Origin: Eledone cirrhosa
Lineage: Eukaryota
Assembly (NCBI GenBank): GCA_964016885.1
Contig: OZ024750.1
Coordinates: forward strand, 39,184,001-39,248,000
Length of the DNA: 64,000 nucleotides
Reading direction: 5' to 3'
This document shows, one piece after another, positions 12,452 to 58,514 of the stretch. Position 1 is the stretch's first letter. The number at the start of each line of letters is the position of its first letter. The notes under the pieces were generated by a model. That model saw only the letters and a program-made list of their open reading frames with translations. It was not told the origin of the DNA and did no database searches. A program made the translations under genes and the position numbers.

Positions 12452-12999
12452 AATATGGTTTTATAAATATAGTTTCCATTTATTTAATATACACACACAC
12501 ACACACACACACATATATATATATATATATATATATATATATATATATATATATATATATATATATGTGTGTGTGTATATATTAAATAAATGGAAACTAT
12601 ATTTATAAAACCATATTTATTCTATTATATATATTTCAAGGGTACCACAAATTAATTGCCTTATGTTGTTTATTACATAATAATAATATATATATATATA
12701 TAATGAGTTGACGGACCCAGCATATTTATCAATGCCAGGGTCGGTTGTATCTCAGCGTACTCCATGGCCAATGTAAGATACCAGAGTATACACATAGTTA
12801 TTCACTTCAATACAACACACGTAAAACGAGGGCCTATATATATATATATATATATATTAAAGAGTTAAACAAGATTCAATGAGTACATCAAAGAATGAGT
12901 TTTACAGTAGATTGGAAGCACTCTACAGTAAAATATTTTCCAGAGTTATTAATATTCAAATACAAATATTAATAAAATAGATGTTATTTTGATCAATTA

Positions 13000-13050
13000 A
13001 ATTTTATACATATTTCAGAGGTACAACAGTACGTCCTCATCAGACAAAAT
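13000..13050 (-). ncRNA. Hammerhead ribozyme core within inverted repeat 12958-13180
   Basis: CTGATGA GGAcGTAC tgtt GTACcTCT GAAA TATGTA TA. Stem I is imperfect. Confidence 0.62.
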
Positions 13051-14040
13051 ATAATGATACATGACATAGCCTGAGATGTTAAATGGTTAAGATTTAATCA
13101 AGGTAGTCCTACCTTGATTAAATCTTAACCATAAAATTTAATTGATCAAAAGAACATCTATTTTATTAATATTTGTATTTTAATATATATATATATATAT
13201 ATATATATATACATACATACCATGTGAGAGAAAGAAGAAAGTCTGAATGAATGTGTTTGTTGGAGAGTACGTAAATAGGGAGGAGGAGGGTGATATGTGA
13301 GAGAGGGGGAGGAGTAAGTCTGAATGGTTGTGTTTGTATGTAAATAAGAGAGGGGGAGGAGAAAGTCTGAATGGTTGTGTTTCTGTGGGAGAATGTCTCT
13401 GAGTCATTCAGATTGAAAAGCTACAGAAATGTTTTCTTTCGTAAATTGTTTCAGATTCATTTATTCACGGACCAATGAATGGGTGAGGGTGTGTGTGTGT
13501 GGGGGGGGGGGGGTACTGTTTGGTTGCTCGGTAAGCTAGACATAGCAGCCAAACCACCTTGAAATCACATCTTGCCATCTTTATAAAAGAAAAAAGACAT
13601 TGGATAATATAGTTGTAGATAAACTGTGTGAAGGAAGGATTTGATAGGATAGTCACCTCTGGAACACTTTAATCATAGTAAAGGTGTATATAACATCATC
13701 ACCATCACGAAAGGCTTAGTGGTTAGGCTTTTGGCGAAAGGTTCACCCCTTTTAGGTGCTAACCGTTCTGGGGCTTGGCGAATCGGAATTTCCCTTTCTC
13801 GCCTGTCGCCCTTAATATCACTCTCTCTCTCTCTCTCTCTCTCTCTCTCTCTCTCTCTCTCTCTCTCTCTCTCTCTCTCTCTCTCTCTCTCTCTCTCTCT
13901 CTCTCTCTCTCTCTCTCTCTCTCTCTCATGTGTGTTTAGTGCAGGAATTTAGTGTTAAAATGTTTGAAATGATTATTCCAACATTGAATGGACCTCATCT
14001 GTGTGTGTGTGTGTGTATATATATATATATATATATATAT

Positions 14041-14075
14041 CCTCTGAAGAAGAGATATTATCTCGAAAATTAAGG
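14041..14075 (+). ncRNA. Minimal hammerhead ribozyme directly after (TA)n
   Basis: CCT CTGAAGA a GAGATA t TATCTC GAAA AT TA AGG. Confidence 0.6.
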
Positions 14076-54245: not shown

Positions 54246-57200
54246 GCAAGGACCCCATTCAATCATTACCTTCTATCTAGCTACCCAACACCCCTCTCTC
54301 CCGCCCCCACGCACCACCATTGCTATTACGTGGACCAATCATAAGCCAGAGCCCCCACGCATCACCAGTATTATTATTACGCGGACCAATCAGAAGCCAG
54401 AGGCCTATACTATCGCTTGCCTGGTTGCCTTTCGATATATGATGGATGGATGGACTGCGGAATCCTGGAAAGTGGAGGAGAGAGAGAGAAAAATCTGGAC
54501 GCTCAGCGACAATGCCAAAGATAAAGACAAATTCACCTCTTGGACGAGAATGCGAGCACTCCTCATTGTTTCGACCGCGGACGGCTAACATAACCCCATC
54601 GCCCCCCGCCCCCCACCGCCCCCAACCCCCAAACGCAATCCAAAACTTCAGAGTTGGTACCATAAATGTAGGCACCCTAAAGGGTCGCGCTAACGAGGTT
54701 GTAGAAATGCTTGAACGTAAGGAGGTCGATGTTTGTTGTATTCAAGAGACCAGGTGGAGGGGTGGGTCTGCTAGATTCATTGAGGGTAAAAAACGATGTT
54801 ATAAGCTTTTCTGGGTGGGAAACGACGATGGGCTGGGTGGAGTAGGAATCATGGTAGCGGAAAAGTGGGCAGATAAGATAATAGACGTAAATAGAGTGAA
54901 CGACAGAATAATTAAAATACGACTTGTCCTCAATAGAACTACGGTGACAGTAATATCTGCGTACGCACCCCAATCCGGACTGCCCGGCACTATAAAAGAC
55001 AGATTCTATGAGACACTGATGCTAACTACCTCCCAAATATCCGACAGTGACTATATAATTATTGCAGGCGACCTAAATGGTCACGTTGGACAACATTGTG
55101 ACGGCTACGACGAAATCCATGGAGGCTATGGGTTTGGTACTAGAAATGAGGAAGGCTCCAGAATCCTGGAATTCTGTGACGCAAATAACCTAACTATCTG
55201 TAACACTAACTTCAAAAAACGTGACAATCACCTGATCACCTATAGATCCGGGGAACACACAAGCCAGGTAGATTATATCCTTACCAGAAGACGTGACAGA
55301 GTGTCTGTTGTAAACACCAAATCCCTCCCCCATGAAGAATGCACCTCCCAAAATAGACTGATAATTAGCGACCTCATAGTCAGGACGAGACGTACTCGAC
55401 AGCAGAAGAGGACTATCCTCAGGAGAAAAATATGGAAGCTAAAGGACCCCACAGCCAGGAATAAATTTCAAAGCATATTACTTGATGCTTTCGACAGTAA
55501 GGAAGAACATTTAGAGTCGGACAATATAGAGGGAGAGTGGGAATTTCTGAAAGCAAACCTGCTGTTGGCGACAGACGAAGTCTGTGGCTGGAGCAGGCCT
55601 GTAGGCAGGAGGAGAGTAATATGGTGGTGGAACAGTAAGGTGAAGGGGTCAATTAAGGCCAAAAAGCAGGCTTGGAAAGTATGGCGGGATGGGGGAAGTA
55701 GAGAAGACTATCAAGTGGCCAGGAGGGAAGCTAGGAGACAAGTGTACTTAGCAAGAAGGGAAGCTGAGGAAAGAAAGTTCAAGCATGTTCTACAACGCGA
55801 TGACCAAAAACGTGAGGTGTTCAGGATTGCTAGGCAATGCGTCAAGGAAAACCGTGGTATTGTCGGGGAGAAGTGTGTACTAAACGACGATGGCACACTT
55901 GCCATCACTGACGCTGATAAGAAGGTAGCTTGGAAGTGTCACTACTAAAGGCTACTAAATGAGGAGAATAAATGGGAGAAAGACAGTCTCCCCCATATCG
56001 ACCCAATAGAGGGACCAGCAGTGTTAGTCGAGGGGAGTATAATAAGTAAGGCAATCAAGGATATGAAGACGGGTAAGGCGGCTGGGCCTTCGGAAATAGT
56101 TGCTGAGATGCTGAAGGCATCTGGCACGGTGGGACACACCATGGTCACCCGCATAGTTAACCAAGTCGTACAGAATGGGGTTGTTCCAAAGGACTGGCAT
56201 AGCAGCATCATCGTTAACTGTTATAAGGGTAAAGGAGACGCCCTAGATAGGAGTAACTATAGAGGCATTAAAATAATCGACCAGGTCATGAAGGTCACGG
56301 AAAAAGTAATAGCGCAACTAATCAGAGAGAGAATCGACCTAGATGAAATGCAGTTCGGGTTTGTGTCAGGCAAAAGTACCACAGACGCTCTTTTCATAGT
56401 ACGACAACTACAGGAGAAGTACCTAGCTAAAGGTAAACCCCTCTACTTAGCTTTTGTCGACTTGGAGAAAGCCTTCGACAGAGTCCCCCGCTCCATTATC
56501 TGGTGGGCTCTTAGAAAACTAGGCGTTGATGAATGGCTTGTGAGGGCTATACAAGCCATGTATAAAGAAACAGTCAGCAAGGTTAGAATTAACAACGAAT
56601 ATAGTGAAGAGTTTAGCGTAAAAGTTGGCGTCCATCAGGGCTCTGTTCTCAGCCCCCTACTATTTATTATTGCCCTTCAGGCTATAACAGAGGAGTTCAA
56701 GTCAGGCTGCCCATGGGAACTCCTATACGCAGACGACCTGACACTCATAGCGGAATCAATGGCCGAGCTAGAGAAGAAATTCCAAACATGGAAGCACGGC
56801 CTAGAGTCAAAAGGACTTAAAATTAACCTGGCTAAGACCAAAGTTCTAGTTTGTAGGAAAGAAAACAAGGCGGCGGTCCCTTCTGGGAAATGGTCGTGCT
56901 CGGTGTGTAGGAAAGGCGTAGGTAGAAACTCCATTTTATGTCCTAAATGCAAAGTATGGGTGCATAAAAGATGTAGTGGGATCACAGGTAAGCTAACTAA
57001 GAACATAGATTTTACATGTGGCCGGTGTTCTGGTGCAATAAGTAGCAGCAAGTGCCCACAAAATACTAGCTCTTTCAATTGAGCAGAGGGTTCTATAGAA
57101 ATAGTGGACAGCTTCCGTTACCTGGGCGATAAAATCAGCAGTGGGGGAGGGTGCTCTGAAAGTACTGTAGTTAGAGTCAGAACTGGTTGGAAAAAGTTCA

Positions 57201-58074
57201 GAGAGCTTATACCACTATTAGCTGCTAAAGGGTTCTCCCTAAAAATGAAAGGCAGGTTGTACGATGCCTGCATACGAACAGCAATGCTGCATGGCAGTGA
57301 GACCTGGGCATTGTGTGCAGAGGATATACGCAGACTAGAGAGGAACGAAGCTTGCATGCTCCGCTGGATGTGTAACAGTAATATACGTGAACGGCAAAGC
57401 ATAAACGAACTAAGGAAAAAATTAGAGATAAGAGGGATCAGATGTTGTTTACTCGAGAGAAGGCTACGTTGGTATGGACACGTGATGCGCATGAAAGTCG
57501 ATAGCTGTATAACAAAGTGCAGGGCAATAAAGATAGACGGTAGTCACGGAATAGGCAGACCTAGAAAAACCTGGGACGAGCTGATAAACTCCGACATCAC
57601 ACACTTACACCTCTCCAAGACAATGTCACTGGACCGAGACCTTTGGCGGTACTCAGTAACAGAGAAGACCCGCCTTACCTAAATATATAGTAAAACCTAC
57701 TCCAACCAGTAGGCATCTCTAACAAAATACACCCCGTCCCACCACCCCCACCCCATCCACACCACCCCGTTCTATGTAAAGTTATGTTGGTGCCGCGCCA
57801 TAGGCTGAAACAAATGAGATCGTGTAGGTGTTACGACAAAAAAACACACAGTCCACGCTGTAATGTGGCCGTGTAGGCAACACGGTAAAAACCTCCCAGA
57901 CCCACACTGTAAATGTGGTTGGTGTTAGGAAGGGCATCCAACTGTAGAAAACCTGCCAGACAGTCCTATGCGAGCAAGACAATCACTCTTGCCTCAAGTG
58001 GGACTACCCCCGTCCAAACCCATGCAAGCGTGGAACACGGACGTTAAACGTTGATGATGATGATGATGATGATG
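54246..58074 (+). mobile_element. Near full-length RTE-clade LINE
   Basis: APE endonuclease (GTINVGTL, CIQETRW, SAYAPQ, GDLNGH, VDYIL), RT (GVHQGSVLSP, LYADD) and RTE C-terminus (RRLRWYGHVMR, GRPRKTW). Ends in a (GAT)n tail and is flanked by (TA)n. Confidence 0.95.
54446..57682 (+). pseudogene. RTE APE-RT ORF with two in-frame stops (55946-55948 TAA, 57080-57082 TGA)
   Basis: ORFs starting at 54446, 56021 and 57104 share one reading frame. Confidence 0.9.
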
Positions 58075-58514
58075 ATATATATATATATAAAGTCTGCGGT
58101 GCTGAAATCAGGGAGACCACAAATCAGGGTAGTACTCTATGCATGGGGAGAAGCAGAGTGGGTGTAAAGGAAGGCAAACACTCGACCACGATGCCTAGTG
58201 GTTTAGACTTGGATTCGGCCAGCCTTTTTAAGGGTGTAATATATACATATATATATATATACACACACACACACACACATATTGCACCTCTCAAAGGAGA
58301 TGACACAGGACCGTGATCTCTGGTGTGATGCAGTAATGCAGGGGCTGAGGCATACATCTAGTATGCCCCATTTTCCCTCCCATCACACTTCCCTTGTATT
58401 TACCCTCCACATATCCTAACACCCCCACCTCTAAATATACCTCCCCAGTTCCCCATGCATCTCCCCCTCCCAATTCCTCAATCCACACTAAAGTAGTCAT
58501 CTTAGTGTCAGGGC

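Follow-up and report, generated by a model that had tools for sequence, protein, structure and literature searches.

A bulged hairpin, usually present twice, borders the tail of Hydra-clade Penelope-like elements in Eledone cirrhosa and beyond

The reverse transcriptases (RTs) of Penelope-like elements (PLEs) group with TERT and are the sister group of telomerase; how they choose their template, and what causes the optional 'tail' found at one end of their copies, are open questions. The Hydra clade of PLEs, which carry a C-terminal endonuclease, has been described together with its TA targeting, hammerheads, fold-back copies and tail (Craig et al. 2021, PMC8557442). In a 64,000-nucleotide stretch of the 3.0-Gb genome of Eledone cirrhosa (assembly GCA_964016885.1, contig OZ024750.1, forward-strand positions 39,184,001 to 39,248,000; hereafter the window), an initial annotation made from the sequence alone had noted a recurrent hairpin in the 3′ portions of TA-flanked islands. 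We find that this hairpin is a real, clade-wide cis element of the Hydra PLEs with a testable link to the PLE tail, and one that is apparently previously undescribed.

[quoted passage not shown] They differ in the length of the tail, published as 30–40 bp and 55–98 nt here, and in having units of up to 3.5 kb. Published explanations of the tail differ, one invoking endonuclease resolution and the other two internal RT starts, and none of the literature searched names a conserved recognition element. In PAc, an anole Poseidon element (Frangieh et al. 2024, PMC11167929), the genomic tail has an RT start site on either side, the RNA 3′ of these sites is needed and targets are AT-rich; the PAc protein is a predicted dimer that cuts both strands. 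The PAc starts are located within the ORF, in an 'AC-rich stem loop' and without target homology, and no conserved motif is reported in the accessible text, whereas the ends described here fall in the leader, 5′ of conserved twin hairpins and at a UA that is complementary to the target. Non-LTR retrozymes (PMC7229834; bioRxiv 10.64898/2026.07.22.740005) are likewise short hammerhead-bearing pieces derived from PLE pLTRs, and leader arrays occur here too, but retrozymes are tandem units of circular RNA whereas the window islands are single fold-back stubs of ORF-bearing families. We found no description of the twin hairpin in the literature; earlier mention may exist in subscription papers, Repbase Reports, figures or supplements. 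The word 'hairpin' is absent from the accessible text of PMC8557442, PMC4209133, PMC7229834 and the 2026 retrozyme preprint, as is 'stem-loop' from that of PMC8557442.

An oriented, bulged hairpin in the leaders of Hydra-clade elements

All ten hairpins cited in the initial annotation read as given, with correct coordinates and strands, and the two further copies placed at 23.2 and 53.9 kb were located (Table 1). The stem pattern with a loop of 8–21 nt occurs 13 times in the window, against a mean of 3.9 (maximum 9) in 100 block-wise dinucleotide shuffles. With a loop of 6–25 nt, 10 of 13 window matches lie 30–80 nt 5′ of a (TA)5+ run, as do 4.8% of all window positions; the remaining matches are those at 15624 and 27463, which end in (CA)n, and one at 57151 inside the ORF of an RTE-type long interspersed nuclear element (LINE). 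The background was measured with the same pattern in 60 unselected 10-kb stretches of the genome at round coordinates (600 kb). There, 50 of 102 matches lie 30–80 nt 5′ of a TA run, a zone that takes up 6.2% of positions, and only 6 of 102 have the run on their 5′ side, so that a motif no more frequent in island tails than elsewhere, or lacking a fixed orientation, can be set aside. Six of seven control patterns with swapped arms or other stems gave 0–8 hits in this zone; for the CAC/GTG control, whose pattern fits CA repeats as well, the count was 18 of 118, and a further 32 fell on the opposite side. The match at 57151–57177 was rejected as chance because no TA run lies downstream of it; the same applies to related RTE copies and to one short-loop match in a different repeat.

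The motif is a bulged hairpin, RCUC-Y..R-UN-GAGY-RCU, that usually occurs twice between the hammerhead and the AUG. It comprises, in order, RCUC-Y, a variable upper stem and loop, R, the bulge U-N, GAGY and an unpaired ACUCU; the loops, which had been taken to be unrelated, contain a second, co-varying stem and a 2-nt bulge. Among hairpins found without requiring U in the bulge, its first base is U in 73 of 76 and its second is variable. Behind the bulge, 48 hairpins have a C-G pair and 24 a U-A pair, and the upper stem has a mean of 2.2 contiguous pairs compared with 1.15 in shuffles (maximum 1.41). In alignment A2, which was selected using the motif itself, pairing holds in 98.4% of cells, and none of 500 shuffles attains its pairing or covariation score. 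The outer pair had been reported to co-vary between A-T and G-C: the change is present, but among the cited examples it is confined to family B, and across the clade an outer G-C pair is the rule (77 of 81 candidates). No Rfam family describes the hairpin in the window or in the tandem family D locus L285:3600-5050. In family B, hairpin 2 (L305–L311; L019:3445-3523) carries an upper stem-loop of ~60–70 nt, with the lower stem, bulge and offset to the copy end unchanged.

The ten examples had been assigned to otherwise unrelated island families. They fall into about seven families (A, at 19610 and 27774; A′, 12918; B, 15624 and 27463; C, 18191 and 19086; D, 19213; E, 58132; F, 12757), and five of these, A, A′, B, C and D, are, judged from their sequences, 3′ stubs of Hydra-clade PLEs. 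The first lead came from a Hydra element neighbouring a Neptune-type locus (L117). In a near full-length Hydra element (L138, family Hydra-1) the motif lies 20 nt before the AUG and the element's own 3′ end halts just before the motif; among Hydra-1 copies chosen by their ORF start, 21 of 30 keep the strict motif and most of the others are truncated there.

Each island family whose ends were mapped has two discrete 3′ ends, a short and a long one. If every hairpin fixes a copy end immediately 5′ of its own position, a second hairpin is therefore expected behind the long end of each family, a prediction made ahead of the search for read-through copies. Patterns for hairpin 2 matched 455 times in family D (some matches double-counted), 46 in A, 19 in A′ and 155 in B, while control patterns read backwards gave 0 matches. 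Read-through copies of A, A′, B, D and Hydra-1 run from the long end into hairpin 2 and then into a Hydra ORF; family C also reads on into a Hydra ORF, and hairpin 2 there amounts to no more than a short stem without the bulge. The hairpins thus occupy the 5′ leader in read-through copies, and at 3′ ends they occur only within the optional tail. The proteins of the six ORF-linked families are 30–51% identical pairwise and the junction DNA is hardly alignable, which makes the motif a conserved island in diverged leaders.

The ORF encodes an RT followed by a C-terminal GIY-YIG endonuclease, assigned by motifs read by eye and by homologues; a Pfam search gave no match for the Hydra proteins. RW(R/K) and SDKT/ADKT (DKT replacing DKG) are present in D, Hydra-1 and homologues, a family A locus (L272) has DKS, and a CxCX5C linker before the endonuclease was read in Hydra-1 and D. 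Family D forms 3.5-kb tandem units with open frames of 784–786 amino acids that end in the endonuclease region (L284/L285). TA units stand at 44 of 45 ends in D, 24 of 26 in A, 31 of 31 in Hydra-1 and 8 of 14 in B, where the other ends are CA. The proposal of a cis signal shared by one mobilizing machinery can be kept as an oriented PLE-type cis element, conserved outside this genome and tied to copy ends, but not as a shared machine: the islands are not passengers, because A, A′, B, C and D each have their own ORF-bearing Hydra element. We infer that the role of the hairpin is in RT recognition, 3′-end formation or nuclease recognition.

A hammerhead core is found in A, A′, B, C and G, is altered in Hydra-1 and has no canonical form in D or E; ribozyme loss or replacement is possible in the latter three. 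The statement that the ribozyme lies upstream of the hairpin where visible holds for the two of ten examples with an intact core on the same strand and is not readable in the other eight, where the core on the sense strand is missing, truncated or mutated. A GC-rich stem-loop occupies the usual hammerhead position in families D and E (window 19240–19300 and 58160–58230, both on the minus strand; L257), and D is a young family whose ORFs are open. For family E there was no read-through copy and no ORF in 12 loci. No ORF link was found for F, which has one distant relative among the loci examined and for which no genome-wide search was made, and hairpin 2 of G was not found, its read-through search giving only CT-repeat insertions. 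Short, retrozyme-like tandem arrays of Hydra leaders occur at L250/L251, L294/L295 and G000:C2:169702715-169703486, with periods of 257, 221 and 183 bp; the first two include the ORF start.

Neptune-type PLEs were considered as the carrier and rejected: no motif lies at Neptune ends in 14 relatives of the window fragment, 30 GIY-YIG loci or 20 longer loci, and model R1 gave 10 hits at E ≤ 1 on 27 Neptune-type loci, none of them on the sense strand of a Neptune end. The window itself holds a 5′-truncated Neptune-like PLE at 10854–11946 on the minus strand, with a zinc-finger linker, a frameshifted endonuclease region and a hammerhead core at 10950–10973. This fragment has thousands of candidate genomic relatives, differs in its 3′ end and lacks the hairpin.

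Copies end just 5′ of a hairpin

Copy ends were mapped in 981 kb not chosen for ends, made up of the window, the 60 unselected stretches and 63 loci fetched by endonuclease searches; 47 alignments with no microsatellite at the end were left out. Of the 143 microsatellite-flanked 3′ ends in six families, 128 lie within 12 nt, mostly 2–10 nt, 5′ of hairpin 1 or of the uncopied hairpin 2 (44 of 45 in D, 20 of 26 in A, 29 of 31 in Hydra-1, 15 of 19 in C, 6 of 8 in A′ and 14 of 14 in B). These zones make up about one-tenth of each reference, and hairpin 2 of family C was assigned by hand. As copies within a family are not independent, the fair count is six of six families. The two hairpins are 67–98 nt apart depending on the family, and the PLE tail known from earlier work corresponds to the stretch from one to the other, here 55–98 nt with the twin hairpins as its borders. 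The spacing of 35–75 nt between hairpin and microsatellite in the initial annotation exists, but is the gap to the uncopied second hairpin and not a ruler from the visible one, since ends lie 5′ of either hairpin 1 or hairpin 2.

The same asymmetry is seen within single copies: in all nine two-armed stubs of the window one arm stops before hairpin 1 and the other before hairpin 2. TA is enriched at positions −4 to −8 of the hairpins (94 of 376, compared with 127 of 1,391 further up; 25% versus 9%), with a peak of 31 of 75 at −6, and the mapped ends show TA microhomology.

The motif, sought beyond the host, is present in Hydra consensi of a sea cucumber and a coral and in Hydra elements from metagenomes. 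A scan of metagenome contigs with the Hydra alignment yielded 79 loci, of which 68 have a leader of at least 100 nt and 48 were kept below 70% protein identity. Within the 170 nt preceding the ORF the strict motif is present in 41 of these 48. By comparison, the reverse strand gives 4, ORF windows give 3 of 447 and shuffles give 0.5. Two hairpins, 55–83 nt apart, occur at 32 of 44 loci with a GCUC/GAGC hairpin; hairpin 1 lies 42–78 nt after the hammerhead core and hairpin 2 34–71 nt before the AUG. In 14 of the 17 contigs with a visible departure of the 3′ copy from the 5′ copy, it falls within 4 nt of a hairpin (12 contig ends and 3 read-throughs were set aside).

Among published sequences (PMC8557442), the consensi Hydra-1_Ajap, Hydra-2_Ajap and Hydra-2_Amil contain the motif: one sea cucumber consensus has both hairpins before the AUG, and the second sea cucumber consensus and the coral one end ~30 nt past hairpin 1. 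Six 9-letter words from the 3′ half of the motif occur eight times in the accessible supplement of that paper, four at Hydra termini and four scattered, some occurrences being hidden by line breaks. Naiad and Chlamys consensi appear, on weak evidence, to lack the motif.

Possible action of the hairpins

The model that we consider fairly probable has the RT docking on a hairpin in a transcript that extends into the following unit; priming with the nicked TA target would then occur at the UA immediately 5′ of that hairpin. This model fits PAc, because two internal RT starts flank the tail there and RNA 3′ of them is needed. We infer binding, priming and an RT dimer in the following scheme. A transcript running through into the next unit would carry both hairpins, and the RT-endonuclease would bind one of them. 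The nicked (TA)n target would anneal to the UA directly 5′ of the bound hairpin and cDNA synthesis would proceed away from it, so that the hairpin itself would not be copied. A start at hairpin 1 would produce the short end; a start at hairpin 2 would produce the long end, with a tail that includes hairpin 1 and corresponds to what the initial annotation saw. Two starts on one RNA, from both sides of the cut, would generate lopsided fold-backs.

The bulge has a possible parallel in the arginine sandwich of the human immunodeficiency virus (HIV) TAR and 7SK RNAs (Pham et al. 2018, PMC6189040), in which the first U of a pyrimidine bulge is followed by G-A paired to C-U and a U-A-U triple is possible. 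The Hydra hairpin likewise has its bulge U (the same 73 of 76) after a Watson-Crick pair, and its G-C and A-U pairs are invariant; it is unlike these RNAs in that its loop caps the opposite side and its 3′ ACUCU flank is conserved. The likeness is one of local geometry read from sequence, with no homology implied, and by this resemblance a U-A-U base triple and an arginine pocket, as in TAR, might involve the conserved bulge U. In the leader of Hydra-1_Crog (Craig et al. File S7) the central U-A pair is replaced by C-G together with loss of the bulge U, a single case read by eye and the combination expected of a U-A-U triple. A fixed stem-loop beside the template also bounds related RTs in telomerase RNA and the DRT10 non-coding RNA (10.1101/2025.10.16.682844), but there the stem-loop is 5′ of the template and halts synthesis, whereas the Hydra hairpin is found 3′ of the part that is copied and would determine where synthesis starts.

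A bolder version, which we regard as tentative and on balance doubtful, is that the twin hairpins are a TAR-like RNA docking site found across the clade, at which a dimeric telomerase-related RT could use a single RNA to begin synthesis at both sides of a cut (TA)n target. If true, the PLE tail, the lopsided fold-backs and the requirement for tandem copies would all be accounted for, and a ~30-nt hairpin would be a portable tag that fixes the point at which a PLE RT starts to copy. The hairpin is short and invariant, is repeated twice and keeps a fixed offset to both ends; it offers a mutational test and a target for structural work, and can guide annotation of the real ends and the leaders of Hydra elements, the source of many TA-island stubs in this genome.

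Several observations weigh against priming beside an RNA hairpin. The lower stem is near-invariant, with three of its six pairs in A2 never varying, so its pairing is unsupported by covariation. Folding energies are marginal (z −0.1 to −3.0), and the minimum-energy fold differs from the model in 6 of 13 cases (three copies of D, A′ and two others). The strict pattern is missing from 7 of 48 metagenome leaders and, of five readable Hydra consensi, that of the sea louse has a degenerate form and that of octopus no visible motif. The weightiest objection is family C, whose long end is sharp (9 of 19 ends) despite the short unbulged hairpin 2. An asymmetry between G-U and A-C mismatches, a possible sign of the working strand, is absent (7 versus 6), and Craig et al. 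think it most likely that the tail results from resolution mediated by the endonuclease (PMC8557442).

The last two points count in favour of the hairpins acting as DNA, with the GIY-YIG endonuclease recognizing a single-stranded hairpin in a transposition intermediate and cutting a few bases 5′ of it, so setting both ends. There are precedents in the Penelope endonuclease of D. virilis, which needed the tail for recognition as related by Frangieh et al. (PMC11167929), and in the bacterial Ssn GIY-YIG nucleases, which bind a single-stranded DNA hairpin, need a C after the stem and cut ~3 nt upstream (PMC11893778). We nevertheless consider this unlikely. Enrichment of TA at the junction and TA microhomology at the ends suit primer annealing better than cutting and ligation, both tail ends are RT start sites in PAc, the only PLE tested in vitro (PMC11167929), and the Hydra endonuclease has to cleave hairpin-free (TA)n targets as well.

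Less likely again is that the hairpins direct RNA 3′-end formation, by cleavage or termination just 5′ of them, and that the RT starts at the resulting RNA ends. This predicts the same two ends, in a region that already contains a self-cleaving motif, but both hairpins lie in a leader that must be transcribed to reach the AUG, extension of the RNA 3′ end did not move the PAc start (PMC11167929) and no Rfam ribozyme matches the motif.

We give slightly less credence still to the hairpins being translation or promoter elements of the leader, for instance on uncapped ribozyme-cut RNA, with ends falling beside them through coincident UA-rich priming patches. The fairly constant distance between hairpin 2 and the AUG, the internal promoter of Penelope in the same region (PMC8557442) and the retention of the family C long end beside a degenerate hairpin 2 would suit such a role; however, AT-rich leaders have TA elsewhere too, yet nearly all mapped ends fall in the two pre-hairpin zones whatever the spacing of the family. 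Finally, a LINE- or SINE-like (short interspersed nuclear element) 3′ recognition hairpin in unrelated non-coding passengers of one shared machine, acting at a fixed distance as first proposed, would accommodate the orientation and enrichment of the motif, the so far missing ORF link of E and F and the short leader arrays, but it is highly improbable overall and largely refuted for A, A′, B, C and D, given that five of seven families have their own ORF, that about half of the ends lack any hairpin and that the spacing between hairpin 1 and the end depends on the family, while the end keeps a constant gap to the hairpin after it.

Hairpins, stubs and other features of the window

The hairpins and fold-back stubs of the window are listed in Table 1; hairpin coordinates are given separately from those of the stubs that contain them. 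One further stub, at 15796–15915 on the plus strand, belongs to an additional family: it retains the 3′ half of a hairpin (~15859–15866) and a tail, joined to another segment, and has intact relatives in L132, L027 and L063.

Table 1. Hairpins and fold-back stubs of Hydra-type families in the window (positions in the window; identities are to the named genomic loci)
Feature	Position	Strand	Identity or match	Remarks
Family A hairpin 1	12102–12123	−		5′ arm mutated; in long arm of fold-back 12051–12490
Family F hairpin	12757–12787	−		no ORF link found
Family A′ fold-back stub	12851–13186	.	95–98% to L300	long arm on − (hammerhead core 13013–13043, hairpin 1); short arm on + stops before hairpin 1
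Family A′ hairpin 1	12918–12946	−
Family B fold-back stub	15476–15682	.	91–98% to L307	short and long arm
Family B hairpin 1	15624–15646	+		outer pair G-C
Hydra-1 (L138/L140 family) fold-back stub	17387–17631	.	97–98% to L140	long and short arm; absent from the initial annotation
Hydra-1 hairpin 1	17426–17473	−		long loop; CC replaces RC after the stem
Family C-like fold-back stub	18047–18238	.	75–79% to L291
Family C-like hairpin 1	18191–18208	+	weak model match, 11 bits	upper stem eroded
Family C-like hairpin 1	19086–19107	+		within stub 19008–19132
Family D fold-back stub	19161–19360	.	96–98% to L257	long arm −, short arm +
Family D hairpin 1	19213–19238	−
Family A fold-back stub	19372–19699	.		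short arm −; long arm + with hammerhead core 19519–19556
Family A hairpin 1	19610–19631	+
Family D hairpin 1	23190–23215	−		within stub 23150–23240
Family B hairpin 1	27463–27485	+
Family A fold-back stub	27572–27862	.	95% to L272	short and long arm
Family A hairpin 1	27774–27795	+
Family D fold-back stub	53895–54093	.		long and short arm
Family D hairpin 1	53947–53972	−
Family E hairpin	58132–58159	−		in stub 58089–58246; multicopy family, ORF link not found

The RTE-type LINE that contains the chance match is near full-length (54443–57682, plus strand), with endonuclease and RT in three frames. It ends in (TGA)n at ~58052–58076, adjoining the family E stub, and fragments of it lie at 39001–39315 and 53491–54030. 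A 1,487-codon open frame at 47645–52108 on the plus strand, with several C2H2-like zinc-finger motifs and a proline run, is probably a large host exon. Weak tRNA matches on the plus strand (2142–2205, 5090–5147, 28849–28906 and 40697–40760) are probably heads of tRNA-derived SINEs. The window also contains long minisatellite arrays, two of them with related 72/70-bp units (3427–4146 and 23800–27411), and a 29-bp and a 20-bp array at 35576–38448 and 60059–62197.

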